From: a virus
Lineage: Duplodnaviria > Caudoviricetes
Length of the DNA: 64,000 nucleotides
Direction: 5' to 3' (one strand)
IMG/VR virus record: IMGVR_UViG_2885526491_000007
Location: 1 to 64,000 of that record
Position numbers and translations under genes: made by a program. The notes below the pieces were generated by a model. It made no database searches, had not been told where the DNA came from, and worked only from the letters and a program-made list of their open reading frames with translations. This document shows positions 7,778 to 64,000 of the stretch, piece after piece. Each line of letters starts with the position of its first letter. The stretch's first letter is position 1.

Positions 7778-7876
7778 GGTTATCGACCTCCTTATTCTTG
7801 ATCAAATATTGATTTTATAGTGATTTCAGATGTGTGTTTACATAATCATCACCTCCTTTAAGTCTCATTAGAGACT

Positions 7877-8857
7877 CTACACAGTATAAATTCCTTCTAC
7901 TTTTTTGGATTCGGTTAAATTGGATGTAATATCTCGCATTGTAATTTCCATTAAATTTTGGCGAGTCATCTTTTCTCGTCTCTTCATCAATCTCACAGCC
8001 TGATGACGAATTGCTTTCTCGATTACATTGCGAACATATCTAGCGTTACTGAAATGAATCCTTAAGTCCTTTTCCTCTTGAATAATGTACTTAAGTTTAT
8101 CTGCTGCATCATTTGTAAAAGTATAATCTTTTTCTGATGCCATTTTTAAAGCAATCAACATTAATTCATCTGTAGAGTAGTCATCAAAGTTGATCTGAAT
8201 AGGAAACCTAGAGGGTAATCCCGTATTGATCTGAAGAAAGTCGTCCATCTCTATGGGATATCCAGCTAATATGATGATCAGGTCATCACTTTTGTCCTCC
8301 ATAACTTTCACAAGCGTGTCTATAGCCTCTTTACCAAAATCTTTTTCTCCACCACGGGCAAGACTATACGCCTCATCGATGAAAAGTATCCCGCCCATAG
8401 CCTTTTTAACAAGGTCGCGAGTCTTCAAGGCTGTATGACCAATGTACTCCCCAACTAAATCGGCACGTTCAACCTCAATCAAGTGGCCTTTACTGAGTAC
8501 ACCCATTTTGTTAAGCATTTTAGAGATAATTCTTGCCACTGTAGTTTTTCCAGTTCCGGGATTACCCTTAAATATCATGTGATATACTTGCTTACTATTC
8601 TTTAACCCCTCTTCACTACGATACTTATTTATTTGGATCAAAGAATAAATTTCGTAAATGAGATCCTTTACCTTATCCAGCCCAATCATTTCGCCCATCT
8701 CACTAAAAATGTCTGCTGCGGATTCATTATGATTACTTGTTAATGACTTCTCCTCACTTTGCTCTAATGGTGCTTTTAGTCCATCATCAGCATTGAATAC
8801 AATATTGATCCTTGAATCATTAACAGTAATTCTTCTGACGCTCTCGTCCACAGTCAT
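7877..8857 (-). CDS. spoVK: Phage-borne intact SpoVK-like AAA+ ATPase
   Basis: GNPGTGKT, LVGEYIGHTA, FIDEAYSL, GGEKDFGKEAIDTLVK, FSNARYVRN; aligns with the host fragment. Confidence 0.9.
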   Translation of the reverse strand: MTVDESVRRITVNDSRINIVFNADDGLKAPLEQSEEKSLTSNHNESAADIFSEMGEMIGLDKVKDLIYEIYSLIQINKYRSEEGLKNSKQVYHMIFKGNPGTGKTTVARIISKMLNKMGVLSKGHLIEVERADLVGEYIGHTALKTRDLVKKAMGGILFIDEAYSLARGGEKDFGKEAIDTLVKVMEDKSDDLIIILAGYPIEMDDFLQINTGLPSRFPIQINFDDYSTDELMLIALKMASEKDYTFTNDAADKLKYIIQEEKDLRIHFSNARYVRNVIEKAIRHQAVRLMKRREKMTRQNLMEITMRDITSNLTESKKVEGIYTV

Positions 8858-8871
8858 CACCTCGTTAAGAC

Positions 8872-8902
8872 AGTATATGCGACTGTGTAAGTGCAAAATG
8901 CA
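8872..8902 (-). promoter_or_regulatory. Putative sigmaE/sigmaK-type promoter for phage spoVK
   Basis: -10 CATATACT (8872-8879) with GCATTT about 16 nt upstream. Confidence 0.45.
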
Positions 8903-8934
8903 CATCTGATTTTATTGATTATAATCTATGTATA

Positions 8935-8950
8935 GTAGGCCGAAGCCTAC
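8935..8950 (-). terminator. Hairpin between parR-like gene and spoVK-like gene
   Basis: GTAGGC-TTCG-GCCTAC with UUCG loop; weak U-tract. Confidence 0.5.
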
Positions 8951-8951
8951 A

Positions 8952-9251
8952 TTAAGAAGTAAGAAATTCATTCAGTTTAGCATCTAAGTCGTCATTGTCT
9001 TCAGTATTATCTAAACTTACATCTTCCATGATTACTTGGTCTTGCTTGTCTAATTCAGTTATTGTAGTTTCACTAAATAACTGTACCCCTTTAATCATTG
9101 GCTCTCTCCCTGTATGACCAAATAAAAGTTGCCTTAGCGCTTCCCTAACTATATCAGCCTCATCATAATAGATTGGAAGTTTATCCATAGCCAATCGAAT
9201 ATCATCATCTTTAAGTGGTCTTAGGCGCGCAATAACATGTTGCTTCCCCAC
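8952..9251 (-). CDS. ParR-like ribbon-helix-helix adaptor
   Basis: VIARLRP...ADIVREALRQ, acidic tail; overlaps the actin-like gene. Confidence 0.65.
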   Translation of the reverse strand: MGKQHVIARLRPLKDDDIRLAMDKLPIYYDEADIVREALRQLLFGHTGREPMIKGVQLFSETTITELDKQDQVIMEDVSLDNTEDNDDLDAKLNEFLTS

Positions 9252-10201
9252 AATCGCACACCCACTTTCTCATTCCCGTTGACCTGATCGAGTTGACCAT
9301 AAAGAGATTTTTCTTCAAGTTTCAGATATTCATATATGTAACGTGCAGCTCCACCACCAATCATATACATATCAAAATTGATGTTTAAACCTTCAATTTC
9401 ATTCTGAATCTGTATTGCCAATGCTTTAAATGCTTTTGCAACTAAGTGACGAATATCTTTTCCTTCATATGTACCACTGATCACATATTTATCTAATTCA
9501 TAAATAGCAGGGGCAGTTCCAACTAATTCTTGTAGATACTTTCTTAGTAATTTATATGCTTTTTCTACACCCAAGAATAAGCTAGTTGATTCCTTCATTA
9601 TCTCTAGACCATCTAATCCGAGTAAATTCAATGTATAGAATCCTAGGTCCACAACAAGAATCTTTTTCTTTGCATCACCTTTGTTTTGGATTTTTCCTGA
9701 TTCATTTAACAGGTGATTCATCGCAATACCATAACCCTGAGGAACTATTTTATATTTATCGATGTTGAGTTTAACTTTATTGAAGCTACTACGACCTTTC
9801 TTTATCTCGAAAGGATTTGAGTCAGCCAACCTTACAATCATCTCTTCCATTTCAGACATCTGATTAAAGTAAAACAGTATTGGTAATCCAGTAATGAGAT
9901 TGAATTTTTTACTTCCGTTTAAATATCCCAATCCAGTTTTAAGAATAATCTCAGATGTCATTGCTTCGCTCTTTTGTTTATTAAGTGTGAAGTATTTTAT
10001 TTCACTCTGTCTTAGAGCTAGATCTCCCACAAACATTGTGTCCTCATAGAAAAAATCATTGGGTTTAATATTCGTATCAAACATTGGCTGTGCTTCTCCA
10101 GCAATGGATGGTTGGACAAATAGTTTCTTATTCTTTTTTCCTTTTGCCCAACTAAATCCAAGATCAAACACACTTATATCTTCGGTCAATATAGAAGACA
10201 T
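9221..10201 (-). CDS. ParM/StbA-family actin-like ATPase
   Basis: DLGFSWAK, PQG, DLGFYT, IGGGA actin-fold motifs. Confidence 0.88.
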   Translation of the reverse strand: MSSILTEDISVFDLGFSWAKGKKNKKLFVQPSIAGEAQPMFDTNIKPNDFFYEDTMFVGDLALRQSEIKYFTLNKQKSEAMTSEIILKTGLGYLNGSKKFNLITGLPILFYFNQMSEMEEMIVRLADSNPFEIKKGRSSFNKVKLNIDKYKIVPQGYGIAMNHLLNESGKIQNKGDAKKKILVVDLGFYTLNLLGLDGLEIMKESTSLFLGVEKAYKLLRKYLQELVGTAPAIYELDKYVISGTYEGKDIRHLVAKAFKALAIQIQNEIEGLNINFDMYMIGGGAARYIYEYLKLEEKSLYGQLDQVNGNEKVGVRLWGSNMLLRA

Positions 10202-10217
10202 GGTATAACCTCCTTAT

Positions 10218-10348
10218 CAATGTAAATACAAAGCGGTTAATCTGAGTACGGCTGTCTCAATTCAACTACAATGTAATACAAACTTATAAATCGATTATAT
10301 CATCAAATGTGTTAAAAGTACATATTTTTATTCTTAATGTATATTTTA
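10218..10348. repeat. Imperfect direct repeats upstream of parM (parC-like) plus promoter
   Basis: CAATGTAAATACAAA (~10218), CAATGTAATACAAA (~10269), weaker copies ~10303 and ~10335; TGTACT-17-TATAAT on minus strand. Confidence 0.45.
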
Positions 10349-10402
10349 AAATCTTCTTTATTACAGACTCACCGTAGGTATCTCAGTAAAATTGATGTTT
10401 CA

Positions 10403-12026: not shown

Positions 12027-12315
12027 TCACATCTTCCTCTCCGAAGTATTCTTTAATCGCCTTATCAATATAACTTTTTCCAATATTTAATGCATAATGC
12101 CTATTGAATACTGTTTGGTATACTAGAGGACATATTTTCTTTTTGATTTTTACATTGTGACTATGAAATAATCCGATTCCTTCAATCCACTCTGAATTAT
12201 TTTTATATGTGATTTTATATGTAATTTCATCATGCACATAGTACTTAATGATTTTATTTCTGCTCAAGATGTTCCTCTTTTCTATGTAAAATATAAGTTT
12301 CATTCAAACTATGTA

Positions 12316-12969: not shown

Positions 12970-13139
12970 TGACTACATATTTAATGTAGAATCTTTCTTT
13001 TGTATTGTTGATTTAAATGACACTTCAAAGTAAAATTAATCCTGCAAGGGTAAATTAGATGGTGAATCGTATGAAGAGTCGTTCCTTAATTGGAGCGATT
13101 TCTTTTTTTCTTCTTAAAACAAGTGTTTTATTAAAACTG

Positions 13140-15506: not shown

Positions 15507-15862
15507 TTCATCTCTCCTAATTTGATTGTAGGATTTAACACTGTCAACAAATCTTCAATCTTAACATGCGAATATCTAGCGGCTTCATATCTTGCTGCTC
15601 TCCAAGTGTCTTCATCTATTTCTTTGTCCCTAAACTCTGCAACTATCTTATTCATGAAACGTTTAGCATTTCGATTTATATCAGTGTACTCAACTGTACT
15701 CAATGGTATCGCACTCTGAGTTTTCTCATTGAATCCAGAGCAGATTCGTCTATCATAAACTTCAGTCTGATAATAATATTCAAGCCACTTAACAAATGCA
15801 TGTTCATAGTGCACTTGGCTTGGTGAAGCGAATATCTCATAATATTCACGATGAAAGTCCAT
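15503..15862 (-). CDS. Hypothetical phage protein
   Basis: AAAGGAG RBS just after palindrome site. Confidence 0.65.
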   Translation of the reverse strand: MDFHREYYEIFASPSQVHYEHAFVKWLEYYYQTEVYDRRICSGFNEKTQSAIPLSTVEYTDINRNAKRFMNKIVAEFRDKEIDEDTWRAARYEAARYSHVKIEDLLTVLNPTIKLGEMK

Positions 15863-15916
15863 GATTCGATCTCCTTTCTCTGTAAAACAGGTATTTTAAC
15901 TAGAACAATCACATAT

Positions 15917-16324
15917 TTAGTTGATAGTTTTAATTTTGACTGACTCAAGTTCTTTAACTTGGTTGCTCCAATACTCAACTTTATACTTAGCATATTCAAG
16001 TTCATATTCTTCTCGAAGTTTTTCCTCTTCTTCTTCAATATTCTCAAGGTAATCAATCATTTTTTGAATGTCGCCAACACCACTATGTATCCAGTAACCA
16101 TCGTAGACTTCTTTAATCTCATACGCTACTTCAAGGGGTGTCATGTCTCTATAATTGATACAATCTTTTTCAATATCAACCAAAAATGACTTCCAAAGAT
16201 CTTTAGCGTCATCTCTTCCAATTACAAAATAATAACGAGCACTTTCTTCTGATGACCCAAGTGTGTATCTGCCTTGTTGACAAGTTACTGTTACGAAATT
16301 CTTTTTTGGTTCTTGAATAGTCAT
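15917..16324 (-). CDS. Hypothetical phage protein
   Basis: ORF with RBS. Confidence 0.65.
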   Translation of the reverse strand: MTIQEPKKNFVTVTCQQGRYTLGSSEESARYYFVIGRDDAKDLWKSFLVDIEKDCINYRDMTPLEVAYEIKEVYDGYWIHSGVGDIQKMIDYLENIEEEEEKLREEYELEYAKYKVEYWSNQVKELESVKIKTIN

Positions 16325-16355
16325 AGTTTAATATTCTCCCTTTTATGTCAATTAT

Positions 16356-18059: not shown

Positions 18060-18062
18060 GCT

Positions 18063-19616: not shown

Positions 19617-19662
19617 CCCCTTGTTATATGTATTATTAATTCTGATAAAAGACGGCTTTCAT

Positions 19663-20706: not shown

Positions 20707-20746
20707 ATCTTATCACATATTATATTGTTTGTACATATCTTTATTC

Positions 20747-25517: not shown

Positions 25518-25585
25518 TAAAATCCTCACTTTCAAATGTATATATCTGTGTAAAAGAATTATTTTATTATAATAATATGTATTAT

Positions 25586-25834: not shown

Positions 25835-26356
25835 CTCCTTGAATTAATCACTTTCTATCTCTGGTGTGAAACACTACTCGGCTAAACTCATTCCAAGCGT
25901 TATTCCACACCTCTTCTCCGTACTTGTCATATTTCTTAAACTGCTCTCTTCCTATATGCTGCTTCAACTTCTTGGTTACATAACTATCTTCATGTAACTT
26001 AGCTTCATTATCTGTGTCGACATCTTCATTGAAACATTCAATCAACACTCTCGATAAACTTAATGTTGCTTCATTTAGTCTTTGAACTTCTTTTTCCTCC
26101 CCACTTGCTTCATTTTTTGTCTTTCTAAGTAGTTCTTCACTTCAAAATACTCTTTAACTGATTCTTCCATACTGTTTGTTTTGAGATGTTGTCGATCAAT
26201 AGCCATATTTAGAGCTTCCAAACTTTTGTTTAACTTATCTAGCGAATTCTGAAGCTTACTATTTCTATTCATCTTCAACACCTCTTCTTGTTGTTTGTAT
26301 TATCAGTTTAATCCAACACACTAGTTTAGTCAATATGTATTTTCACTCTTAAAATA

Positions 26357-26737: not shown

Positions 26738-26933
26738 CTCCTCAACTGATTTTTATTCCAGTTCTATTTGTCTCTAACCTACTTTAAATAAAAGGTACAT
26801 TTTACAGAGTCTACTGTAGAGGTTGAATTACAAATCCATACTCTTTTGCTCTATAAGCTGCTTTTTGATCAAACTTACTCGAACCACTTATTTTAAATTC
26901 TATATTTTACATTATTTTCAATAAATCGTACTT

Positions 26934-28234: not shown

Positions 28235-28568
28235 ATAATAGATACCATTTGATTGTCTATTTCGTTACGAGTAAAATGGAGATAAAATTTGACTTTCATT
28301 AACATTTCATCCTCTAAAAACCCTTATATATCAATACTTTTCTGACTCAAGTAAAGCTAAAATCTCATGATAGGCAGTCATTCGACCAAATTTCCTTCCA
28401 TGACTACATCCCATCTCATAGCAATCATCAAAGTTGCCTCCTGACCAGTCTTCAGGGTTGTAGTCTTCTTCAATGTCCTTATTGATGTCATCGATATACT
28501 CTTGCAATGTCTCAATCTTATTTCTCAGTGCTTCAGCAAGATCCATATAAACATCTCCTTGAATTGTT

Positions 28569-29318: not shown

Positions 29319-30166
29319 TGATCATTCTCCTTTCCCTTTGAAATACGCCTTTCATTTGGATCTCACTAAACTTGACAAATCAAACAACAGTCCCACCAAA
29401 AAGAAAATTACATAATATCCTGAGACGGTAATAGTGAGACCGAATAGTTCTTCTAAGCCAGTTACGCATATTGCATCAAATCCAAACAGTGATAAGAACC
29501 ATGCCAATATTAAACCACTCACACAATTCAGTTAATTGTCCTCCTTTCCCATTGGGCGCTTATATCAATATCGGGGGTTCAAAGATTCATTAACAGTTGA
29601 AAAGATAACCTGAATTTGATTAGCCCAAGGTTTTAGGGTAGGATCTAACCTTCTAATTTCACCTAACTCTGTTTCGGAAACTTGATTGTAGAAATCGTTC
29701 TCACCATATTTGATCCACTCAAATCCTTCACGAAGGACATTGATTCCGTTGATCAGTTCCACAATCATTCCTTCTTTAAACGAATCATCATCTGAGTAAT
29801 ATGCATCAGTAATTTCTCTTAGGCGTTCTGGTGTCAGTCCCATAGATTTTTCTCCTTTCAGTAGTTGAGCTAAGTATTCATCTTTATTTTCTTCTATGTA
29901 TTTCATTGTTTTACTTAAACTCATATCCTCAGCTCATCTCTTAAGTAGATTTATCTTTAGTTGAATTTAAGAATAATATCACAATACCTTTGACTCTTTT
30001 GGAATAATATCTAAGCCAGCAGCATAATCTTCTGCCGTTTCATAAATGTCATAACCATCTTGTTTAGTCTTAACAATGATGCAATCTGGAACCTCGACAC
30101 CGTTTTGATCAACAATCTCATAAATCTCAATCTAATCACTCATTTCCTGATGAAATCTCACATTTA

Positions 30167-30529: not shown

Positions 30530-30567
30530 TCGTTACTCTCCCTTTCTCAGTCAAATATATCTTTCAC

Positions 30568-32640: not shown

Positions 32641-33121
32641 AAGTTTATCCCTCCTCACAAAAGTTGATAAAGCCACTATTTTATTTGTCGCGATCACTTT
32701 TAGGGACAAAGTCATTCCCTTTGCAGGAAAGTAGATTTGCGGTTCTACAGAAGTGTTCAAAGTTACAATCTTCGCAAATGTCCATTGCTTCATAATCTTC
32801 AAGCTTTTCTTCGCTCAATAACCTCTACCTCACTTATCTTGAAACTTGTATTTTATAAGGAAATAGGGTCTAAAAAATCCATTCCAAAAGTATTTCGAAT
32901 GTCTTTTTTTAATTACAACTCCAACACACGTATCCATCTATAGCCTGTGAACATTTCGCACATACTCTCTCAATGTATAATTTACCACCTAAAATCTCTA
33001 CTCTTGAATATTCACCAGACTCTTCTAGTTCTTTTTTCTTTTGTTCAAGAAATGATCTTTTATATGACGATTTACACCAAGGAACTAATGCCATAAAAAT
33101 CCTCCTTCGCTTAAGATTTTT

Positions 33122-33904: not shown

Positions 33905-34471
33905 TTGCCCATCTCCTCATATTTTGATGAAACAGTTCTTTCTTGGACTTCTATGTATTAAAATGTTGTACATCCCTTACGATATCTCTTGCCTTTATAT
34001 TTGAATCGCGCGATGAATGTACGAACTAGAATTAATCCTTCATTCACACGCTCAATCACAATTACACCCTTTTCAGTCATCCATCTTATTTTTCCTTGTA
34101 CATTTGGAATGGAGGATATCATCTTAATGAGATATCCCACCCCAACATTGCTTTGCTCACATCTTACGCGCGCATGATCACTGACTTTGATTCTTACTTT
34201 TTGATTCTTCATATGTATTACCGTTTATTAGATTTGCGCTGAGTACGTTGCTTCTTGAATTTAGTCAACACAGATCCTTCCTTTCGACCATTTTCTGCTG
34301 GCTTAACATAATGGAATGAGAAACCCTTTTTAGCTGCTTGCTGTTTAGCTGCAATGACTGCACCAAGATAATCAGCAGGAAGATTGTCGATTACCACACT
34401 TTGATTGTTGTTGTTAGTTGCGATTCCGTAAAATTTCATATGTATATTTCTCCATTCGTATATGTATTATT

Positions 34472-36115: not shown

Positions 36116-36618
36116 GGCAAAATCACTCCTTTCAACATTTTACTGAACTACTATTTTGAATTTTTCAGGTAATGCAATATTCTCATTATTATTTATCCAA
36201 CTACTTGTTAACCACTTGTCTACCAATCCTGTATGTTTGTTGATGATTTTGATATTCACTTTTCTCAAATCGATCCACTCCTCAGAAATTAGTTAAGCAG
36301 CATTTTAAAACCCTTGTGTTTACTGGCTTTTTTGATCTTCAATTCTAGGTAAAAGAGCAGTTTCATTTAAGCCTTAAATTACCACCAATATCGGTCTGTT
36401 TCATCTGAATATTCGCCCATCTTGCAATAACGCTGATAGTGATCCCAATTATCCAAATCTAGTCCTTGCTTTTTGCCATCCTCATAATCCTCATCTGAAT
36501 ATGGCTTCGTTGGATCGCCACCACACAACGATAATTCTTCAATGCTGCTTCTTTGAATCAATTGATTGATAATATCTTCCGTTGAATTCATATTCAGTTC
36601 TCCTTTAAATCGAATTTC

Positions 36619-36945: not shown

Positions 36946-37406
36946 TTACATTCTCTCCTTTTGTAAGTAAAAGTATATTTTTACTTAGATTTTCAGTTGC
37001 TAGAAGGCAATGCCTAAAATATCACATGCAGTGCGCATCCCTACCTTGAAATCACTTTCTCTTCCCTGATAACCATCTACTACATATTTGTCGAAGCTAT
37101 TGTAGGCCAATCGTAGCTTTTTTTCTATTGAAATCTTTTCTCCAAGGTATTCGCAAATAGTTTCAAGGGGGATATTGTGCAAAATCTCATCATCCCACAA
37201 AGCTGGATTTTGAGAGTGACACTTGATAAACCATTCATTGTTAACTTCACTGACAATCTCATTGATAAGCTCTTTTTGTTCATTCGTTAATACATATACC
37301 ATTCCATCATCTTCCTTTCTGATTCTCCATCAAACTCTTCTTTCACAGGAACGGGGTAACAAGCAAAGTCACTTTATTCACTTGTCACTCCCATCTCCCC
37401 GAATGA

Positions 37407-37822: not shown

Positions 37823-39868
37823 TTAAAATTTCACTTTAAGAATTCTCTCAGTTTGTCCCTTTACTTTAACCAGTAGATCATTTCGTCTAGTCGAACTGAA
37901 TCCAATCCCCGACAACTGATCATCCACAGGTTTAATAGATAGTTTACTTCCTAGTGCCTCAAGAACTCTTCTGTGCTGCATCAATTCCTCTACCAAGAAT
38001 TCATTATAAAATCCAGATGGTGATTCTGTATTGGTACAGTCCTTTAGGAAAAACATATAATGCTTATGCCCAATTCCTTGTTGTTGATTCCAGTAGTTAG
38101 GCGAATATGAGACAACACTTACTGGAACAAATTGATTAGTCTTTACTCCCCATACATCCTTAGATGATGCACTTGAAGGCAATTTTTCCTTAAGAGTAAA
38201 CCCTTTGTCTCGACTAAAATTCACTTCTGCTACTTCAACTTTCTCACCATTTCTCAATTCTTGGCTGTAGTCGAAGGAATAAATTTGTCCATCAAATTCA
38301 ATCTCTGCTTTGAAACCTGTCTTCCCTCCGCGATGTGAAAAGTTATGAACTAAGAATTTATATGTTCCTTCTTGCATTCTGTCTTTATTTGTCCAAGTAA
38401 TATTCTCAACTGCTGGAATTCCCCTAAGCGGATTAATAATATCCACATCTAGTTGACCTGTAGTATATCTATTATTCTTTTCACCATAATAAAGTAGATT
38501 ACCATCAGGTTCATAGCAATGAGCGTCCAAATCATTTTCGTCATATTGCTCGTCATTCCATTGAATAGAAAATCTGAGTACACCTTCTACATTGCCACCT
38601 GCTGATTTTACTCGTTCCTTCAGTGCGCTATCGGTAATATTACCAGAATAGGCCCAACTAAAAGCATTGTCCCATTTAAACATTGACTCTGCGCTGCTGT
38701 CTTCGGGAGCAATAAGTGATACCATATTTCCAGAATGCTTACTTTCCAGAAACACTTCTAGTTCATTTGCAGTGGGGAGAATGTGATCAATAAAGCTGTC
38801 AATGGAAACCTCTTCTACTCGCGAAAAACTCTTAGGGTTAATACCAATATCTTTTGACATCTTATCAAAAACATTTGCAGCGCCCTGAATACGATTTGCT
38901 GAGTCTTTGTTAGAGAAAAGGATGTTGTTCACTGTAATATCATCTAAAGTTGCATGTCTGCGATCCAATGAATTTAAGTATCCAAGCTGTTCAATGGTTT
39001 TGCGAGCATCATCAAGCATTCTTTGAGTGAAAATTGGCTTGCTTCGCTTGTAGTTTTGAGGTGCTACAATCACTTCATATTTCTTTACAGCCGTGTCCAA
39101 ATCCAAGCCTTCACTAACATTGATAAGCAGAGTGCCAATACTGTGGTTCCTGATGCGCCCGATTGCACCGCCAACTTTAACGGATTGTTCCCATGCATAG
39201 TTATTTTTTTCCTGAATGGAACTTAGTAAGTCATATGTCTTTTTGTGCTTTAGGAATTCAGTTAGTACTCCTTTCCACTCTTCACCCTTATACAAGGAGT
39301 TCTGAGAAATGAGCTCTAAAACTGTAAGTAAGCTGTCTGCACTGATTTCTTCAAGGGATCGTTTAAATACATTGCGTGTATCTCTGTATACTCCTTTTGT
39401 TTCTGCTTCTGACTTACTGCTTTGATCAAAGAATCCTTCTGGCAACTCCATGTACAGGTGATCCCATTCAATGATCTTTGTATTTGTTTTTTCAAAATTC
39501 TTATCTGTGCCGATTTTCTTAAACTTGGTTACATATACATCAGAAACATCATGAGACCTAATGAAGGTTGAAAGTGCGTTAAGTACTGGTTGGAACTTTG
39601 TTTCGTTGGTCTCAAAATCCCAAATAGTAGTGACCTGATTGTCTTTAATAAACACTGCGTTTCCAATATTTTTGATAAACTGTCTACAGCAACTACAATC
39701 GTATTCTCTTCGTTCACGGAAAATTTCATTTGTTCCTTTTGGGAAACTGTCAAGATATAGATTCCAGAGCTCGTCTTTGTCCACATCCACCTCAAACAAT
39801 TTGGTGGCATCTTGAGACAGTTTGTTGAAATTTTTCTGAAGCAGCACCTTTAACTCTTTGGTTTGCAT
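37823..39868 (-). CDS. Large phage protein with YfaP/DUF2135-like domain
   Basis: DLDAHCYEPDG...LDVD...VENITW; N-terminal YDCSCC. Confidence 0.65.
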   Translation of the reverse strand: MQTKELKVLLQKNFNKLSQDATKLFEVDVDKDELWNLYLDSFPKGTNEIFRERREYDCSCCRQFIKNIGNAVFIKDNQVTTIWDFETNETKFQPVLNALSTFIRSHDVSDVYVTKFKKIGTDKNFEKTNTKIIEWDHLYMELPEGFFDQSSKSEAETKGVYRDTRNVFKRSLEEISADSLLTVLELISQNSLYKGEEWKGVLTEFLKHKKTYDLLSSIQEKNNYAWEQSVKVGGAIGRIRNHSIGTLLINVSEGLDLDTAVKKYEVIVAPQNYKRSKPIFTQRMLDDARKTIEQLGYLNSLDRRHATLDDITVNNILFSNKDSANRIQGAANVFDKMSKDIGINPKSFSRVEEVSIDSFIDHILPTANELEVFLESKHSGNMVSLIAPEDSSAESMFKWDNAFSWAYSGNITDSALKERVKSAGGNVEGVLRFSIQWNDEQYDENDLDAHCYEPDGNLLYYGEKNNRYTTGQLDVDIINPLRGIPAVENITWTNKDRMQEGTYKFLVHNFSHRGGKTGFKAEIEFDGQIYSFDYSQELRNGEKVEVAEVNFSRDKGFTLKEKLPSSASSKDVWGVKTNQFVPVSVVSYSPNYWNQQQGIGHKHYMFFLKDCTNTESPSGFYNEFLVEELMQHRRVLEALGSKLSIKPVDDQLSGIGFSSTRRNDLLVKVKGQTERILKVKF

Positions 39869-40186
39869 ATATGTAAAACTCCTTTTTTATGGTTTTTAAA
39901 TTTCTATGTAACTATTTGTTTTGTTGATGAAATTCAAACTTCATCTACTTTTTATTTTTCCGTTAGCTCGATAGTTATTTGACCGGAAGAATAAGTTGCA
40001 TCTTGATTGATGATTAGATTTGATAATCCGTACTCATCTCGCATTTCTTTTACTATCTCAAAAATTTTCTCATCCAGTAACTCTGTAAACTGCTCAATAT
40101 TCATTTAATAAATCCCTCCCAATCTTGATCAAATCCAACATTCATCAGATTACTTCTCTCAACCCGATGAATGTTGTCTAGTACAG

Positions 40187-40429: not shown

Positions 40430-40704
40430 TCGACCATCCCTTTCAGTCTTATATTGTTATTATACTACCGTTATTCATTATGTCAATATGTATTTTTATT
40501 CTTAAATTGTTTTAATGAAAACTATATTTTATCTGCTTATACATCAGTCAAAATATCCATCATCTTTTCAATGTCCTCATCATTCAGCCCATTGACTTCT
40601 TTCCAATCATTTACTAAAAACCTTAAGGGTGGACACTCCAGATCCCACCAAGATAGAAAGCTAAGTTGTTCAAGCTGTTTTACCGTAAACATTTAACACC
40701 TCTC

Positions 40705-45161: not shown

Positions 45162-45220
45162 TCTTTCTCTCGATATCTCCCATTTACTATTCCAATATTC
45201 TGATGAAACTGTACTTTTAC

Positions 45221-46402: not shown

Positions 46403-46746
46403 TTAATTAATTCCTCCTTTAGATTCATCTTACCATACATTTTAGTAATTGTACATATTTTTATTCTTAAATAATTCTAATTAAATCAACCTTTTACAAA
46501 GATTCTTGATGATATATTTGCGGCATCGCCAAAAGTTTTAACAAACACGAAATCCAACACCTCGAAATAGCGGTTAAATTGGATATCTGCCCACTTATAC
46601 AACAAGACTGGTTCGGTATATTTTGTAATTCATTGAGATCCATCAGATATGCTTCTGAACAAGTGGTTCCCCTTTTTAGATACTCTATGTAGGTAATACG
46701 TTCCGTTCTCATGTTCAATGACTAGATCCACTCTTTGCACTTTAGT

Positions 46747-47295: not shown

Positions 47296-47855
47296 ACCAA
47301 TTTCTCCCCTTTCCTGTGAAAGTAAACTTTCTTAGAGATTATCTGCATCTGGAACAGATCTATCGACATTAGCTGTTACTTCTATGTCGCTGCATACTCT
47401 ATTGACTAATTTTCTTGCATCGTCTGCTGTAACTTCAAATAGTTCAGCTAGTTTATTTAAAGTTACATGACCTAGTAAATATAAACCCATCAGCTCGATT
47501 GGATTCAACTTCTTAATGTCTGTGTGATAATAATCGATCATCAAATTATTCGACTCTTTAGATGAGAACATAGTTCACCTCCACTCTGTGTGAAAGAAAG
47601 ATTTTATATAAACTTAAAATCACCCTTCTTGAATGTGAGACCACCATATGAGCTGCTAAGTTGTTTTGTTGCGACATCATCAAACTCCACTAGGTATAAG
47701 TCTTCAGAATTGCTTGTTCGGATCGGGTTTTCTTTTATGGTTCCTGATTTTCCAATAGCTTCTTTCCAAACTGTTGAATCGTTAATTATAACTCTTTTCT
47801 TCATACTATTTCACCCTTTTCTCCATGAAAGGAAAATTTGATCAGAATACTCTTA

Positions 47856-48896: not shown

Positions 48897-48939
48897 TTCA
48901 GTTCATCTCCAAGTCACTCACAATAAAATATTTGTTTGA

Positions 48940-49632: not shown

Positions 49633-50378
49633 TTATGTCTCCTATCATTTTAGAGTCTCGATAATTTCAATTCCATTAATATCACAATCATAAAACTTAT
49701 CTTTATCATCATAATAAAAAATTGCTGACTTCTTAACTTTGAGTTTAAATTTACTGTTAGACTGTTCTTCTGTCCAAACAGCGATACCATCTTGTGTATT
49801 TGACATTATAAGATCGTAACCATCATTATCTGTATAAGCAAGAAAGTAATCAAGGCTTTCAAGCTCATTCATTTTTTCTATCACAATGTCTAATTTATTT
49901 TCAATGGCCCAGTCTTTCAACTCTATCCAGTTGCTCAATTTGAAACCTCCTTATTTTAAATGAAAGTCATATTTCATTAAATTCCGACTTATTTGAGTCA
50001 TCAGTTATTTCACCTATACCTCCTCTAATACTCTTAAGGTCGACATGGACTTCAATCACTTCGTTCGGGTCAAGTTGTTTCATTTTGAGTGATTTATTGC
50101 CATTTTCGTCTAGCAGCCAAGCTTCTCTAACTGAAAACTTTTTAATCAAATTCATACCCTCCCTTTCCTTAAATCTCACATTTCATATTGTTTCTTTTTC
50201 AAATAATAAAAGAAAAGATTAAGATGATGGAAAGAAGAATCCATGTGAAATATCCATAAGTTTATCCATCCATTTCTCGAACAAAAAGACCGCATTTTGT
50301 CGTGATATCTAAACCAAAACCGATGATAAATAGCCACAATCTCACCCCTATTATGTAAAAGATTCGTTTTACCCGATC

Positions 50379-50882: not shown

Positions 50883-51520
50883 AAGATTCTCCCCTTATTA
50901 TGAAACTACTCTTTTACTTAAACTTCGTTTCAATAACTTCAAAAACTTCTCCACATTCAACTTTTAATTTAATCGCAGCATTTTCTGCTCTTACAAAAGT
51001 AGTATATTTCTTTGCTGTAATTTCACTTCCAACTGTCACTGCTATGTATTCGTCCTCCCTTGCTAACTTTTTCTTTCTTAAGAAGTATTCTGTAGAGTTC
51101 AATCCAAACTTACGCATCAATACGAACATACCATTCCCTCATTTCCTTAACGACCAGTGCCACTCAGACAATAATTACAAATCGTCTCACCTTTGATAAC
51201 TCTCCATCCTTGATTCCTTAAAGCCTTCTCAGCAATCGATTTGTTACCTCTCATTTCTGCTGGATTAATATCTCCACTAGCCCAATTACCACACCTGTCA
51301 CAGCATGTATCATAATATCTTATTAAATTAAAACTCAATAAAGAAATCCCCCTTTTATCTATGAAAGACTAATTTTACTTTCTCTTATTACCATTATAAT
51401 CCTTTAATCATCCTGTTCAACACAATATCCTATGTATAAAAGCTGCGTCTCTTGTCATTAACAATTATTTATAATGTTATTTTATTATCTTTATTCTTAA
51501 AAGTCAAGTAACAAATCACT

Positions 51521-51883: not shown

Positions 51884-52233
51884 TATTCTAATCCTCCTCC
51901 CGATAATCTGACAGCAACTAAACTCTTTATGTCGATCCATTCGTGCCCATTTTCCCATTCGATTCTAATCTTCTTTCCTAACTCATTAACCTTTGAAACA
52001 ATCCCACTTACAGCCCGTTTCGAATTCGATTCAAAAATCTCAAAGTATGCTTCTTCAGTATATCTATATGATATTCCTATGTTTTGATAAATAACTTCCC
52101 ATTCGTCCTCGTGTAAAAGTGGTTTAGATAAATCGTTATCTCTTGAACGATGTTCAATGATTCTTTCTTTATGTTGTGGCAGCATCATACGACTTGATTC
52201 CCACAGCCCATTTGCCTCCAGTTTTTTGCTCAT
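51883..52233 (-). CDS. YolD-like protein
   Basis: WESSRMMLPQH; coupled to UmuC-like gene. Confidence 0.8.
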   Translation of the reverse strand: MSKKLEANGLWESSRMMLPQHKERIIEHRSRDNDLSKPLLHEDEWEVIYQNIGISYRYTEEAYFEIFESNSKRAVSGIVSKVNELGKKIRIEWENGHEWIDIKSLVAVRLSGGGLE

Positions 52234-53474: not shown

Positions 53475-53496
53475 TATCACTCCCGTAGTTATATAA

Positions 53497-53538
53497 GAAC
53501 ATTTGTTTGTATTAGTATTATACACCGAACAGACGTTC
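53497..53538. promoter_or_regulatory. LexA/DinR SOS boxes
   Basis: GAAC-AGAC-GTTC (53527-53538) and GAAC-ATTT-GTTT (53497-53508) flanking a TATAAT. Confidence 0.8.
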
Positions 53539-54160: not shown

Positions 54161-54192
54161 TTAAAACTTGTCTTTCATTGAAACAATCATAT

Positions 54193-55840: not shown

Positions 55841-56229
55841 TACTAAGTCACTCCTTATTCGTATTTTCAATCCAATATGTATTTCATTCAATTACTGATA
55901 TCTTAATTTCTTTTCCTTTTAATCGATCTAGAATCACTCCAATAGAAGTGCCTCCAATAATGTGATCTGTAACAATGCCTCTTGATGGTGTAACTTTACC
56001 TGTTTACTGAACATTACCTGAGAAATCTTCGTCATCAATGGCTATGGATTCTCCATTTTGTTTATCCAGCTCATTTGCCACTTGATTAAATTCATTGGCG
56101 ATACTTCTAAGATCCTGAGCACTCCACGTGTTATTTGTTAAACTGATACTGCTAACAAGCCGATGTGGGAATCCGATTTGTTTTACTATTTTCCCTTTTA
56201 TAAATCTCCCGTTAACCTTTATCTCAGCA

Positions 56230-56817: not shown

Positions 56818-57790
56818 TTTCTACCTCCCCAATGTTAGTCAAACACGAATTTCATTCTGACTTGTTGAAAGCAATCCTTCGGTATATACCAGTCATATGT
56901 ATTTGATTAATGATGTGATTTCGAATCTTCTTTTCTGAAAGATATGATTTTACTGGTGTGTCTGTTTCCTCAGCAAATTTTAGCAATTGTTCCTTTGTGA
57001 ATGGATCAAATACTACTTTTAATTCTTCAACAGATAGATTGTAGTAATATTCTAGTGTCAACAAATGAATCTCCTCCTTTCCAATAAAATAGACCTTTTA
57101 CAAGATTGTATACCATGCCTCTAGATTACTTTCAGTTAGCGGAACTACTTCGTTTAAGTGCTCTCCATCCTGATTGCAATATACAATTGCACTGTCTCCA
57201 AACCTTCTAGTTATGTACCACTCCTCATGAAGTCCGTATTCTGCTTTTGCTACATTTCCATTAGTCAGCAGATCTAAAATCCCCGCCAACGTCAACATTT
57301 TAATCACTCCTTATTATAAATAGCCAACAAATGTCCCTTTTGGTGCAATTTCAATCTGATCAATAAAGTCTCTCTTTGATAAATACTCAATATCAAGCTT
57401 ACTCCTGTATCCAATTAAGCCTTTAATTACAGGCGATCTATATGCCACGATACCAAATTTATTTAGCACTTTTTCACACTTTTCATAGTCTTCAGAAAGT
57501 CTAATTATGTACTCCATCTACTAAGCTCCCCCTCTTATCTACCAAAGAAGTCATTGATACACTCCTTCTTAAAACTTTCAAGAGATATTCCATAGTCGCT
57601 ATCTAATTTATTTTTATACACACTCTTCCAACCAAACCAATACTTCATTTTCTTAAAAATACTCAGATTGTATTCTGTTGTATATAACTCAACTCCACCC
57701 ATACGACCCGTTGATACTCTTGACTGTCTAACTTTCATTAAGTATCGTGTTCCATTTTCTACCCAATACTTTTTATACAAACTTGTCCCC

Positions 57791-58237: not shown

Positions 58238-58459
58238 CCTTCACATTGTCCTTTCTTTGATGGGCATATAATTCATAGAACTTTGTAAATAATTCACCAC
58301 TAGATGGACTTCGTTTAATTTCAAACTCAATTTCTCTTGTTCCTAATTCCAACATAATCTCTTCTTTTATGTCTCCAAGTTCTTCGAGTTGTTTTTCATG
58401 TAATAAATAATAGTCCAAAGCTTATTCTCCTTTCCTGTGAAACGTGCCTTTTACTTAGA

Positions 58460-58825: not shown

Positions 58826-59425
58826 ATAGCTACCTCCAATTTTTGATGAAACAGATCTTTTACATAAATATATTTGTGGTATATTTACTCTTAATTATTC
58901 TTCTGTAAAGCATCTAATGCGGATCTCATCCTTTGTACGGTTTCGTCAAGCACTTGCTGCGCCCAATATTCCAGAGGATAGTGTCCAACAAATTCTTCAT
59001 CTTCTTTTAACATCTCAATAAAAGATGAATGACTAATAATGACTCTTACTAAACTTTCCTCTAAAGGTGTTGCATCGGTTATGTACTGGATTAACATTTC
59101 AACAAAAATATGATCGTTCAATGAACTTGTCCTCCTAGCTCTTTTCTATATTTACTATCTGCTATCTCAGGGAAGATTGCTACGAATAAATCTATTACAT
59201 CTAAAATTTTACGTTCTCCGTTTGTTGCAACATAGAATCCAAAGTTTTCACTATGCTTAGTTACTTTTATGCCCAATTCTTCAGCTAATATCATTGTCTT
59301 GTCTAAATCAACTGATTTGATGTCTTTCAATTTATGTATCGCCTCCTAATTAAAGTAGTGGTATAACAACTTGTTAAAGTCATCATACCACTACTTTTAT
59401 AATTTGTACATATATTTATTCTTAT

Positions 59426-59938: not shown

Positions 59939-60011
59939 TCATTATTCTCCTCATATATGTATTATTCTTGATAAATTCTATGTTTCATTGAAATATTTCA
60001 TCATGAGGCAA

Positions 60012-61079
60012 TCAGATAGTATCGTTACTAAAATCAGATTCTATGTCTTCTATTGTTTGATCAGCAAGCTCGGAAATAAATTTAATCTTTTCCTCTTTAG
60101 GAATGTTCAATTTACAAATCATCTCAATTTTCTTGTCCATCCTGATATTTCGTTGCATTATAAACGCTTTCTGCTGAGGATATTGGAAGTCTAGATAATA
60201 AAAGTGTCCATATTGATTTTCTGTCATTTGGTCTTTAAATAGTTCAGACAACTCAGTATTAAACTTTAGAAGATATGAATTCTTCTTAACGAAATTCTTA
60301 TGGATTTCTTTAAGATTTTTCGTCGGAATGAGCTTAAACAATTCTTTAGACTGACTAGTACTGATATTCTGATAGTCTTGTATTTTAAAGAAGTATTCTG
60401 AATGACTCTTCTTGTTTAATATTGAATCATAGATCAGTTTGAAGTATTTATCTTGAGTAAGTAGTGGATTCTGCAACAGTAGATTCCATGGAATTTCAAC
60501 ATATGATTCCTTCTCAAATAGATTCTTTAGATTCCCTTTGTAGCGGCTAACAGAGGAGAAATGAAAACCCATATTGTGCTCAAAGATACAACCATTACAC
60601 ACGTACATTTTATAAAGGTTGCTAAAAATCATATCTAACTCACTTTCATTGTAGTCATACGGAAGCTTATAACTTTTTGCCCATAGTGGATATTCGATAT
60701 CAAAGAGATCAAACAGAGCAAATATGATATCTTTATCTGGATAATATTTAACAATCAATTTAAACCATTGGGGAATCTCATCCTTATGCATCCCCTCAAA
60801 GTCAACTGAACTAGATTCTAGGTTTAAATGTGCAATCAATACAGAAATATTATCTAAAGTAATCTTAGACTTAAGAACCTCAAACAACTTCATTTGTTCA
60901 GGTTTCTTGTTTGTCTGAGTTAATTCGATGATCTTTTGCTCACTCAACCTATTGACTTCTCTTAAAGAGTGCAACTCATCGAGGTATTCATTAACCCTCT
61001 TTTCAACCTCTGTGTTCACCAAAGACATAAAACTGCTCTCGAAACTCTGATAGCTTTCCTCATCATATTCTAAGTACAA
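60012..61079 (-). CDS. Hypothetical phage protein
   Basis: Bounded by sites 59972 and 61101. Confidence 0.7.
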   Translation of the reverse strand: MYLEYDEESYQSFESSFMSLVNTEVEKRVNEYLDELHSLREVNRLSEQKIIELTQTNKKPEQMKLFEVLKSKITLDNISVLIAHLNLESSSVDFEGMHKDEIPQWFKLIVKYYPDKDIIFALFDLFDIEYPLWAKSYKLPYDYNESELDMIFSNLYKMYVCNGCIFEHNMGFHFSSVSRYKGNLKNLFEKESYVEIPWNLLLQNPLLTQDKYFKLIYDSILNKKSHSEYFFKIQDYQNISTSQSKELFKLIPTKNLKEIHKNFVKKNSYLLKFNTELSELFKDQMTENQYGHFYYLDFQYPQQKAFIMQRNIRMDKKIEMICKLNIPKEEKIKFISELADQTIEDIESDFSNDTI

Positions 61080-62217
61080 TTTATTAACTCCTTTTCTCAG
61101 TAAAATTTACATTTGATCAAGATTCGTTCGACGTTAAGTCGATACCAAAGAAATATTCGCTGTTTGCCCCTCTTACACTATCAGGTGTGTCAATAAGTTC
61201 GATTCTGCTTCCATTTCCAAATTCAATATAACCATTGTTGCCTTTTTGACTTCTCAAAAACTTGCGAATCTCAATCAATTCTCTGAAATTACGTTTCATC
61301 ATCATCTCATCTACTTCATCCATAATTTGATACATCGCTTCCTGATGATCACTCCGTATAGCCGAAGGACAATCCAATGTGTTTGGAATAGCAGCATTAT
61401 GTAGTTCTTCGCTTTCAGGGCAACATTGATCAAATGCATTCCACAAACAGTGATTGTTATTGCAATGCATTTGAATCACCTTCAGACACAGACATATCCG
61501 ACAAGCTTTCAGATAGTTCCTTATATTTGTCGGTAAGTTGTCTTGCATCCTCTTTTATTTTTTCGTCATCATATGTATGCATTTTTAGGGTTACACCATT
61601 CAGGGCATCTTTTGTCATCATATTACTTCATCCTCCAATTCTCTAAGAAAGTCCTCTTTTACATAGTTATTTGCTTTAGTAACTCATCATTGTGCTCCAT
61701 TAATTCCGTATATTTTTCGAGCACATGTTTTAATTCCCCAAGATCTATAAAATCAGAAGCTAAGCTTGTTCCAGTTTCTCTGTTGAAAATAATGAATTTG
61801 TTATTATCAAATATCATCTCATGCCTTCCTGAACCTACTGATGAGTAAATGACGTTATCCCAATTAATCATTTCTACACTCCTTTCATTTTCCATGTCAA
61901 AAAATTTAACTGCGAACAATCCAATAAACGTCAAAACAATTGTCCCAGCAGATATTTTTTGTTACGTAGCCAGTATCTTTGAACTCTCGGAAGAATCCGT
62001 ATTTAATATCTGCCTTTTCGATATCCGTCAGATACTTCTCAGCATCTATCTTCATATGTAATTCCTCTACACTGTTGGCGTAAAATCCACCTTCAGTCCC
62101 ATCAGTTTTACCATAGAGCACTGTGTACTTGTATAGTGAAGCTACTGTATTCTCAAAAATACGTTTCAGGTCATGAGAATATTTAAAACGCTCCATGTTT
62201 AATCTAATGGACTTTAT

Positions 62218-62589
62218 TTAATTACCATCATCATGTCGTCTTGTTGCTGCATGCCAATCACAGAACATTTCTACGATATCAAACAGGTTCATGTCTGCAA
62301 TTCCTCTTGGGTAGTGCTCAGGGTGATGTGAGTTGTTAGCATAATGATGTTTAAGTGCCACACCCATTTTTTCAAGATATACCTTGTATTCGTCAGACCC
62401 ATAAGTACTCACCTTGAGTTTAGGAGTGTATTCAGTGAAAACCTCAAGTTCGGGAGATTCTAACTTAGATTTATCATGTACAAGTGCTCTTTCAGTCAAT
62501 TCCTTTGTAAACTCCATCATGAATTCTCTAACCTGACCAATGTGCTCCTTGGTGTCTCGTATACAATGTTCTTTTGTGTATTCGTACAT
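62218..62589 (-). CDS. DUF5662-like (HD-like) phage protein
   Basis: HDKSK, HHY..NSHHPE, EMFCDW. Confidence 0.7.
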   Translation of the reverse strand: MYEYTKEHCIRDTKEHIGQVREFMMEFTKELTERALVHDKSKLESPELEVFTEYTPKLKVSTYGSDEYKVYLEKMGVALKHHYANNSHHPEHYPRGIADMNLFDIVEMFCDWHAATRRHDDGN

Positions 62590-63399
62590 TTTATTATCCC
62601 TTTCTCTGTAAATTTTCTATTTCATTAACTTATTGAAGTACTCATGAATGAGCTCATCATCAGACATAGCCTTCTCAATAATGCATTTTAAGTCTTTAAT
62701 TTGAATTTCTTTAGATCCGTTTTCTTCAATTTTAATCAATAAATCATAAAAGAACTTACCCGTGTTAGCAGAACCTAACTTAAATGCCTTATTTATAGTT
62801 GAGTATTCTGCCATTTCTTTAATAATCTCTATATAAATCTTATCCAGTTCACCTGTAGTGTCTCTATTCAACTTCAATTCTCCTTTTCTCTGTGAAATTG
62901 CGATTTGATCTGAATTACTTTTCATCTGAATTGGTTTGAAAACAGTGAAAATCATCGTTACACGAAAAGATGGCTTCGGTTCGAATGTTCTTTTTCTCAC
63001 ACAATCCATCACCTTGAAACTTACCATTGGTATAGTCGTCCTTATAATAGATGCAAAAATCACAGAGTGCTCCGACCATCTCGCATTCGCTATCACAGTA
63101 TACAGCCATTCATTTTATCTCCTTATTTCTAATTATTTATTGTGATTTAATTTGCTTAGCTTAGCTTTTTAATCATATGATCTAGTGTATTTCTTAAAGC
63201 AATCGCATCAGCAAGGGAAAAGTCTATCCCACAAAATCGTGAATTGTCTTTAATTGTTACGTAAAACTCATCATCTCTCCCATGCTTCATCGCATTCTCA
63301 ACATTGTCATGATTCCAAATTAACTGCAGCAAATTGCCATTGCTATTGTTTATTTTTAACTGTAAACCTTCCTGATCTAAATATTGAGTGCTTGACATA

Positions 63400-63849
63400 C
63401 TATTCATCCCCTTCATACACAGAACAATATCCTTTAACATACATCTTAAAATTTATGTATAATTCTTCAATCGATTCTGCGTAACTATTAACATTTGGCA
63501 AAGAATATAGAAATCTTTTTTGATAATTCGTATTAAAACCATTGTCGTCCATATAGTCTTCGAATGATAACAGCAGGGACTGAAGATATCCTCTTTCTTC
63601 ATTACTACTTTCACAATGTTGGGTTTGCATATGTAAAAAGTACAATTTGTTCTTTCTATCATAAATGACTTCTATATCATTTAAGGTATACATATTAGCT
63701 TCCTTAAAACGATTATCTATTGAAGACTTAACACCCCAAATGTGCTTAAGTCTTCCCTGATTGTATTCATTGTCAGCATAGTCTGGATATTTCATTTTGC
63801 AGCGAAACACGTCAATCCATCTTGTTGTAGCATAATAAAAGTCTTTCAA
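63400..63849 (-). CDS. Hypothetical phage protein
   Basis: ORF after palindrome site. Confidence 0.6.
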   Translation of the reverse strand: MKDFYYATTRWIDVFRCKMKYPDYADNEYNQGRLKHIWGVKSSIDNRFKEANMYTLNDIEVIYDRKNKLYFLHMQTQHCESSNEERGYLQSLLLSFEDYMDDNGFNTNYQKRFLYSLPNVNSYAESIEELYINFKMYVKGYCSVYEGDE

Positions 63850-64000
63850 ATTCTTACCCCTCTCTTAATGAAATCACGATATCATTTTAGATTTTCAATT
63901 TCACTCATTAGGATTTTTTTATATTCATCCAGTCCAACAATATGAACGTGTGTGTCTGGTTCGCTGTGATAATATCCACTTTCATCGTCAATTTCGAATT

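Follow-up and report, generated by a model that had tools for sequence, protein, structure and literature searches.

Candidate position-coded crossover sites at the gene junctions of an SPbeta-like provirus

Site-specific recombination by Cre, Flp, lambda Int and the Xer proteins requires identity of the site centre between the two partners, whether these are lox, FRT, att or dif sites. In heterospecific lox/FRT systems only identical spacers recombine, and two different sites allow clean replacement of a segment without excision. The attC site of integrons is a single-strand-folded element of 57-141 nt that travels with its cassette, and the order of integron cassettes varies; the IntI-type integrase, which has an extra domain, is encoded beside attI and a Pc promoter. 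In the XerH-difH structure the protein makes base-specific contacts only with the inner 5 bp of each arm; it touches the outer arm at the backbone and the 6-bp centre hardly at all (PMC5241119). Adaptive genes carried in dif modules of Acinetobacter plasmids occur in different contexts (PMC6449649), and in T4-type phages the exchange of modules between relatives is believed to run through the PeSL motifs (PMC2839356, PMC4122927). SPbeta itself possesses a published repeated element, SPBRE, which is the operator of MrpR (YopR), a repressor with a tyrosine-recombinase fold (PMC10516654). The subject of the present analysis is a further repeated element, the palindrome TNAAA-N6-TTTNA, which recurs between genes in bases 1–64,000 (the window) of the 134,573-bp IMG/VR provirus IMGVR_UViG_2885526491_000007 (the whole record is called the contig, or G000). 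With a probability of roughly 0.55, its copies are fixed, position-coded crossover joints for the swapping of genes between related phages, at which the six-base centres of the partners must match.

The palindrome is strongly over-represented. Exact copies number 40 in the window, 39 of them within 7802-63884, compared with 8.94±3.19 (maximum 18) in dinucleotide-preserving shuffles of the same DNA. The contig as a whole holds 78 exact copies, 72 of which lie between 7 and 102 kb, and 17 copies of a composition-matched control in which the pattern is read backwards and not complemented (ANTTT-N6-AAANT). When sites are assigned by their centres, 52 copies but only 2 control matches are intergenic (3.57/kb vs 0.14/kb over the contig), and intergenic DNA makes up 10.8% of the contig. 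A first-pass annotation of the window had counted 30 exact and 10 one-mismatch copies. The enrichment that it proposed is borne out, and its five quoted examples and its junction coordinates are all correct; the exact copies had been undercounted. One-mismatch copies show no enrichment as a class (151, with 128 control matches). Conservation nevertheless marks 9-10 of them as real, the corresponding position in a relative being occupied by an exact site with an identical centre. About seven exact matches are intragenic (3810, 26142, 30259, 39874, 54771, 57006 and 62153) and look like chance or coding matches. On the minus strand, which is the coding strand here, copies occupy the gap from a stop codon to the following ribosome-binding site (RBS), in the layout stop codon, site, about 8 nt, Shine-Dalgarno sequence, start codon. 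The stop codon of an open reading frame (ORF) of at least 35 codons precedes 28 of the 40 window sites by -3 to 39 nt on the minus strand, and at several sites it forms the first three bases of the motif; a Shine-Dalgarno sequence with its start codon follows within 45 nt at 24 of the 40. Over the contig, the median distance from the end of the site to the start codon is 23 nt. Sites are absent from the interior of the nrd block (~20.7-25.5 kb), as had been noted before, and from that of a block of large genes at 40.7-44.7 kb. No description of the palindrome was found in the published SPbeta literature examined, including PMC10516654, PMC5467207 and bioRxiv 10.1101/2020.05.06.055103.

Base preferences around the motif are dyad-symmetric and extend weakly to an 11-6-11 arrangement, T-Y-T-n-n-R-T-R-A-A-A / N6 / T-T-T-Y-A-Y-n-n-A-R-A, with a strong signal over the inner 5 bp of each arm and a weak one further out; on the downstream side, some of the outer signal may reflect RBS context. 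Tyrosine-recombinase core sites consist of inverted arms of ~11 bp around a centre of 6-8 bp, and the first-pass annotation had rightly recognised this architecture, which is seen here as 5-6-5 at gene junctions and, weakly, as 11-6-11. Inverted arms around a 6-bp centre are also the form of the single-recombinase Xer core sites (XerH-difH, and the sites of XerA and XerS), and the profile follows that of XerH-difH: five strong bases, approximately six weak ones outside them, and a centre that varies freely from copy to copy. Degenerate mirror positions show no covariation within copies (|z| <= 2), and the half-sites are therefore selected separately, as expected for a protein dimer on duplex DNA and not for a hairpin; an RNA or DNA hairpin was ruled out on the same ground. 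Unlike dif, which occurs as one site per replicon and serves dimer resolution, the palindrome is present at ~70 sites per genome, with private centres and at gene junctions. To our knowledge, no FtsK-type control of the palindrome sites has been described.

The six-base centres are conserved by position. Relatives used for comparison were G001 (IMGVR_UViG_2879469214_000003), G003 and G004, together with eight loci around a Y-family polymerase gene (those named in Table 1 carry the prefix L). G001 is collinear with G000 and shares with it only mosaic blocks of 65-92% nucleotide identity. The two genomes nevertheless have 49 centres in common, and the longest common ordered subsequence of centres is also 49, where letter-shuffled sites give 2.6 shared centres and order-shuffled sites a subsequence of 11. 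Partners with the same centre were found in G001, G003 or G004 for 32 of the 40 window sites, and every shared centre is collinear (21/21 in G001, 23/23 in G003 and 23/23 in G004). At the more distant loci, where the polymerase anchor is ~70% identical, the same centres recur in up to six of the eight. A gene-anchored test used 17 site pairs picked solely by an adjoining homologous gene (38-92% amino-acid identity) and not by centre. In these pairs 101/102 centre bases are identical, compared with 24/34 (71%) of the free positions in the arms and 55-58% (~56%) of the 12-nt outer flanks, and the probability of at least 16 of 17 centres being identical is 6e-9 even if a nucleotide identity of 80% is assumed. 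By sequence comparison, then, partner sites have the matching centres that characterise tyrosine-recombinase core sites. Because partner spacers match, the tolerance of Tn916-type integrases for non-matching spacers, to which the first-pass annotation had appealed, is not needed. On these alignments the centre is better kept than the arms, the reverse of what conservation of base contacts would lead one to expect; it agrees with XerH-difH, where the protein reads the inner arms and hardly touches the centre. Most of the isolated exact matches of at least 14 nt that lie outside BLAST blocks are motif sites. Within a genome, near-identical centres are rarer than chance predicts (15 vs 30±5 in G001; 20 vs 29±6 in G000), and no centre is duplicated on both sides of a gene.

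The genes beside these conserved centres are frequently replaced. Of the 44 same-centre pairs, 21 lack a homologous ORF on either flank, 19 have one on a single flank and 4 have homologues on both flanks (blastp, 1e-3), with identity dropping to background right beyond the 16-mer. Gene order is kept all the while, with 103 collinear pairs of homologues vs 2 weak off-diagonal ones. Homology starts or stops exactly at a site in several pairs, yet most block ends lie elsewhere. One block extends from site to site (88487-88691, 92% identity), as do two blocks in the comparison with L018 (reference positions 4664-5101 and 15684-15941). The sites thus delimit units in which relatives differ, and in this respect the first-pass annotation is supported by the homology comparisons. 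Individual sites are listed in Table 1 with the other features of the provirus.

Table 1. Palindrome sites of the window and associated features of the provirus. Centres are written on the plus strand; relatives named are those with the same centre. Except at 37824 and 40516, the exact sites listed are junction sites, as is the one-mismatch copy at 30151.
Position	Strand	Feature	Centre	Relatives and remarks
7802..7817	minus	exact site	ATATTG	G001, collinear
10387..10402	minus	exact site, directly after stop 10403	TTGATG	G001, G003, G004; G001 homology ends here
12287..12302	minus	exact site	TATAAG	G001, G003, G004
13115..13130	minus	exact site	CAAGTG	G003
15883..15898	minus	exact site	CAGGTA	G003
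19646..19661	minus	exact site, after stop 19663	GACGGC	G001, G003, G004
25551..25566	minus	exact site, upstream of nrd large-subunit gene	GAATTA	G001, G004
26789..26804	minus	exact site	GGTACA	G001, G003
28283..28298	minus	exact site	TTTGAC	G001, G003, G004
29339..29354	minus	exact site, overlaps stop codon	TACGCC	G003, G004
30151..30166	minus	one-mismatch site, adjoins stop 30167		exact in G001
30551..30566	minus	exact site, after stop 30568	TATATC	G004
32668..32683	minus	one-mismatch site		exact in G004; isolated 19-nt exact match with G001
32840..32855	minus	exact site	CTTGTA	G004
33928..33943	minus	one-mismatch site		exact in G004
36350..36365	minus	exact site	GAGCAG	G001, G003, G004, though arm N position differs
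36968..36983	minus	exact site	GTATAT	G004
37330..37345	minus	exact site	CTCTTC	G004
37824..37839	minus	exact site, start codon 27 nt downstream		no partner found in G001, G003, G004
39928..39943	minus	one-mismatch site at junction		exact in G001, G003, G004
40516..40531	minus	exact site, adjoins SPBRE-like promoter element 40488-40503	ACTATA	G001, G003, G004
45204..45219	minus	exact site, after stop 45221	CTGTAC	G001, G003, G004
46481..46496	minus	exact site, overlaps stop codon	TCAACC	G003, L016, L019
47317..47332	minus	one-mismatch site at junction		exact in G001, G003, G004
47591..47606	minus	exact site, overlaps stop codon	GAAAGA	G004, L018, L019, L020, L023
47826..47841	minus	exact site	GGAAAA	6/8 related loci and G001, G003, G004
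48924..48939	minus	exact site, directly after stop 48940		no partner found in G001, G003, G004
49961..49976	minus	exact site	GTCATA	G003, L021, L023
50170..50185	minus	one-mismatch site at junction		exact in G001, G003, G004
50356..50371	minus	exact site	GATTCG	G001, G003
50901..50916	minus	exact site, overlaps stop codon	CTACTC	G001, G004
51362..51377	minus	exact site	GACTAA	G001, G003, G004
54162..54177	minus	exact site	CTTGTC	G001, G003, G004; G001 has ~570 extra bp just upstream
55871..55886	minus	one-mismatch site at junction		exact in G001, G003, G004
56839..56854	minus	exact site, overlaps stop codon		centre one base off G001 partner at 51481
57085..57100	minus	exact site, overlaps stop codon	TAGACC	G001, G003, G004; neither flank homologous to G001
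58438..58453	minus	exact site	CGTGCC	6/8 related loci; neither flank homologous to G001
58847..58862	minus	exact site	CAGATC	G001, G003, G004
59972..59987	minus	one-mismatch site at junction		exact in G001, G003, G004
61101..61116	minus	exact site, directly after stop 61117	TTTACA	G001, G003, G004
61646..61661	minus	one-mismatch site		exact in G003
62893..62908	minus	exact site	TTGCGA	G001; neither flank homologous
10320-10335, 20733-20748, 26335-26350, 40488-40503, 46453-46468, 59408-59423	minus	SPBRE-like element AAGAATAAAAATAYRT, copies in the window
1-1287	minus	host HflX-type GTPase gene		probable prophage border
1798-3462		large serine recombinase, 554 aa, likely integrase		directly after hflX-type gene
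contig 104845-105885	minus	YopP-like Xer-type tyrosine recombinase		outside the window
contig 106245-108839	plus	YonO-like single-chain two-barrel RNA polymerase, 864 aa		Pfam RdRP match
contig 127044-128045	plus	YomM-like tyrosine-recombinase-fold protein		outside the window

Conserved inner arms, weak outer arms and a position-fixed centre that varies between copies would be expected of a tyrosine-recombinase core site whose partners need identical centres, and they lead to the proposal of slot-by-slot exchange at matching sites. The five-base arms, weakly extended to 11 bp, would be the common recognition part on duplex DNA, and the six-base centre would differ at every position within a genome while being the same at the corresponding position in relatives. 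When two related genomes meet, through co-infection or infection of a lysogen, strand exchange within the centre by a phage tyrosine recombinase would be completed only between matching centres, so that crossovers would be limited to corresponding gene junctions. Two crossovers at neighbouring joints would replace one RBS-ORF-stop unit and would leave gene order and reading frames intact, with nothing deleted. Sites of one genome would not recombine among themselves because their centres differ. The same sites might also have a second, regulatory role. Shared arms and differing spacers recall heterospecific lox/FRT cassette exchange, which is engineered and uses two sites, whereas the series considered here would be natural, ordered and genome-wide. 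The likeness to the pdif/dif modules of Acinetobacter plasmids is that many Xer-type sites flank adaptive genes in accessory regions (PMC6449649). Dif modules, however, move with their flanking sites and have host XerC/XerD arms in alternating orientation, whereas here the rank and centre of a site are fixed, the genes change, and the likely enzyme is phage-encoded. PeSLs are likewise repeated intergenic motifs that border variable small genes (PMC2839356, PMC4122927), but they are longer promoter-plus-stem-loop elements, recombined through homology, alike everywhere and devoid of a position-specific centre.

The first-pass annotation had supposed a phage recombinase outside the window, and a tyrosine recombinase with a complete catalytic set is indeed encoded on the contig. 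This YopP-like protein has all six residues of the R-K-H-R-H/W-Y active site (R, K, HxxR, H and Y), and among proteins of solved structure XerA and XerD are its best relatives. It shares 30% identity with SPbeta YopP and 61% with the orthologue in G001; homologues are restricted to this group of phages of 125-170 kb. In SPbeta-like phages yopP is a core gene of unknown function (PMC10516654). A second protein of the same fold is 59% identical to YomM, has HxxK instead of HxxR, and matches IntI4 only marginally. Judged from these sequences, the YopP-like protein is the best candidate enzyme for the sites and the YomM-like protein a weaker candidate. As a tentative extension, genome-wide exchange by a YopP-family Xer-type enzyme acting on ~70 private-centre sites may be a property of SPbeta-like and related large temperate phages. 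In Geobacillus virus E3 (L025) and Psychrobacillus phage Perkons (L028) a ParB/DndB-like gene and then a second integrase-like gene come after the YopP-like gene, which is the yopP-yopQ-yopR arrangement of SPbeta; in the present provirus three ORFs of ~100 aa take the place of these two genes. A 399-aa ORF near the YopP-like gene is a homologue of YonV and not of MrpR.

SPbeta carries the same kind of site. Its genome contains 54 copies of the palindrome vs 16 of the control, 27 vs 2 of them intergenic, and most have the form TAAAA-N6-TTTTA, the upstream stop codon TAA often being the first three bases of the site. SPbeta and phi3Ts share 15 centres, all in order. At 113664, 131162 and 129297, identity of 100% begins at the site edge, and isolated conserved 16-mers stand in otherwise unrelated DNA (SPbeta 116415, 117535 and 118470, corresponding to phi3T 107397, 107862 and 108785). 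Centres common to SPbeta and the group of the present provirus do not exceed chance (0 and 2 vs ~1.6 expected); the codes are lineage-specific. The sole non-homologous junction reported for laboratory SPbeta x phi3Ts recombinants (N1, element C25; Dragos et al., Suppl. Table 1) is listed at phi3Ts 107382 and at SPbeta 'yosA'. On the phi3Ts side it lies 15 nt from the phi3Ts (MT366945) site 107397-107412, whose centre TATTCC is shared with SPBc2 116415-116430; N1 is a lead and not evidence.

Several observations weigh against position-coded exchange. Block ends between G000 and G001 fall within 20 nt of a site in only 15 of 81 cases, with 39 at site-less junctions and 27 intragenic. Of the block ends at junctions, 28% are at site-bearing ones, while 30% of all junctions carry a site, and the comparison thus shows no preference for site-bearing over site-less junctions. 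Since most block ends are off sites, exchange is not restricted to the sites and, on this crude measure, does not even favour them. The same holds for SPbeta and phi3Ts, where only ~5/22 block ends are near a site and where, at 132747, identity continues for 36 nt beyond the site. A crossover within the centre predicts that the free position of each arm moves with its own flank; this was so in 16/17 vs 11/17 cases (p = 0.085, a trend only, with pairs that are non-independent) and in 8/10 vs 6/10 for G000 and G001 alone. In two more distant relatives a pair of centres, GGTCTA and GGCACG on the coding strand, is swapped in order (L020:3086/4813 and L021:7135/7447, against window 57085 and 58438), the sole departure from collinear order seen. 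An unchanged centre gives its carrier no immediate benefit, and its conservation therefore needs the mechanism itself or lineage-level selection as an explanation. Only their joint occurrence in one phage group ties the YopP-like protein to the sites. In distant phages, counted only where a YopP-like gene is present, the motif reaches a modest 1.4-2.7x control (motif/control 51/23 in Tsamsa, 71/35 in E3, 32/17 in Lactococcus AM1, 18/13 in Sundance and 71/26 in Perkons). Finally, the tight placement before the RBS would fit a regulatory site equally well.

A regulatory role alone is the first alternative to be considered. The palindromes could form a stoperator-like operator array for a dimeric protein that silences or times the accessory early genes, with recombination being incidental. 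Stoperators of the cluster A mycobacteriophages are a precedent for such arrays. Such an array would have many copies in short intergenic regions of one transcription direction, as is seen here, nearly all of the 52 intergenic copies being in the minus-strand early region. An operator could also display the dyad symmetry, the 11-bp spacing between half-site centres, the marked preference for intergenic DNA and the constant position directly in front of the RBS of ~70 genes, and the same phage family provides in MrpR a protein of tyrosine-recombinase fold that acts purely as a repressor (PMC10516654). SPBRE is likewise a repeated intergenic element, bound by that protein; it is of another sequence, with ~10 copies at sigma-A promoters (PMC10516654). 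Derived from ten published target promoters, SPBRE reads ATACA-N7-TGTAT within AAATACAAAWAATATGTATATAA, and the identity of the palindrome with SPBRE was ruled out by this difference in sequence. The 15-bp SPBRE consensus, moreover, belongs to early sigma-A promoters, whereas the palindromes adjoin the RBS and overlap no promoter. In SPbeta, chromatin affinity purification sequencing (ChAP-seq) of MrpR yields peaks at SPBRE sites only (PMC10516654), so that the known master repressor does not bind the palindrome. The provirus has a separate operator-promoter element of its own, AAGAATAAAAATAYRT, in 14 contig copies, each directly before sigma-A-type -35/-10 hexamers. These are probably the analogues of SPBRE, operators of an MrpR-like repressor at early promoters, so that the provirus probably has its master-repressor operator already; the contig yielded no homologue of MrpR itself. 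Nor does an operator array account for the position-specific conservation of centres above that of arms, or for the persistence of the same centres in the same order where both flanking genes are unrelated. The genome-wide operator that the first-pass annotation offered as its alternative is weakened by the better conservation of centres and by the separate SPBRE-like element, and we regard it as rather unlikely.

Homology-patch recombination is a second alternative. In this case RecA or an annealing protein of Sak4/RecT type would recombine the phages without a dedicated recombinase, and the palindrome would exist for another reason, for example protein binding, and would be the only 12-16 bases shared between unrelated cassettes. 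SPbeta-like phages do recombine readily in the laboratory at homologous regions (bioRxiv 10.1101/2020.05.06.055103), and SPbeta has a Sak4-like annealing protein, YorG (record annotation). The position of most block ends off sites would be consistent with such a process, and the isolated conserved 16-mers could serve annealing. Patches of 12-16 nt are, however, very short for such systems, and annealing wants identity over the whole patch, whereas free arm positions differ in ~30% of pairs and the centre is 99% identical. Homology patches also explain the unchanged centres no better than position-coded crossover does, and this explanation is judged improbable.

A signal in RNA or transcription (a hairpin, a processing site, a translational operator or a promoter of the YonO-like polymerase) would suit the constant distance of ~8 nt upstream of the Shine-Dalgarno sequence and the presence of a YonO-like gene. 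It is very improbable, given that the arms do not covary, that a stem would be a weak 5 bp of A/U, that inverted symmetry is meaningless for a single-stranded RNA site and that the conserved centres would be unexplained. YonO of SPbeta uses a single start site, that of the late operon (PMC5467207), whereas the sites are in the early/accessory region, and a promoter of the YonO-like polymerase was ruled out on both counts. The YonO-like gene of the provirus is divergent from the YopP-like gene, with an SPBRE-like element between them at 105929-105944.

The integron-like shuffling favoured by the first-pass annotation, in which an RBS-ORF-site unit is excised as a circle and re-inserted, finds a likeness to attC/attI systems in small promoterless ORFs each trailed by an imperfect palindrome and in phage-encoded tyrosine recombinases, but has next to no likelihood: sites belong to positions and not to genes (21/44 pairs with neither flank homologous, 32/40 sites collinear), gene and centre order is not variable as attI insertion and excision would make it (103 vs 2 pairs; shared centres forming an ordered subsequence), genes do not have the same centre on both sides, which the insertion of a one-site circle would produce, differing centres within one genome would block the intramolecular excision that forms circles, and the site is conserved over 16-28 bp with mirror positions that do not covary, and not folded like attC.

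Phage genomes remain collinear despite a fast turnover of accessory genes, and how they do so is a long-standing question. Illegitimate recombination plus selection is one usual explanation, homology provided by conserved linkers the other. A series of sites with shared arms and position-specific centres would be a concrete, testable mechanism of ordered gene exchange. If position-coded crossover is correct, accessory genes, anti-defence genes included, would be swapped slot by slot with gene order kept, in a natural counterpart of heterospecific lox/FRT exchange; the core SPbeta-like gene yopP would gain a function, and the entry points of new anti-defence or host-takeover genes would become predictable. 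SPbeta and phi3T carry the same kind of site in a genetically tractable host, which makes the idea directly testable.

The gene content of the provirus beyond its serine recombinase is that of an SPbeta/Tsamsa/E3-like phage and includes a DNA polymerase III alpha subunit, an AAA ATPase, an actin-like segregation protein, ribonucleotide reductase and a Y-family polymerase; nearly all genes as far as ~105 kb are on the minus strand. Positions 1-3462 of the window are probably the prophage end plus its integrase. A megablast of 20 kb from the window against the GenBank phage set retrieved no near-identical phage, and IMG/VR yielded no relatives of the ORF at 60012-61079. The actin-like (ALP/ParM-type) segregation protein is encoded in the early region (window 9221-10201, minus strand) and shares 55% identity with that of G001; phages of this group may possess a plasmid-like partition function. 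The Y-family (ImpB/UmuC-type) polymerase (window 52230-53525, minus strand) stands out by its conservation, with 94-96% amino-acid identity in G001, G003 and G004, while its neighbouring genes are replaced. An M12/reprolysin-like metallopeptidase gene (window 26934-27863) is on the plus strand, opposite to the early region in which it lies; it is flanked by the sites at 26789 and 28283 and looks like an inserted accessory module.

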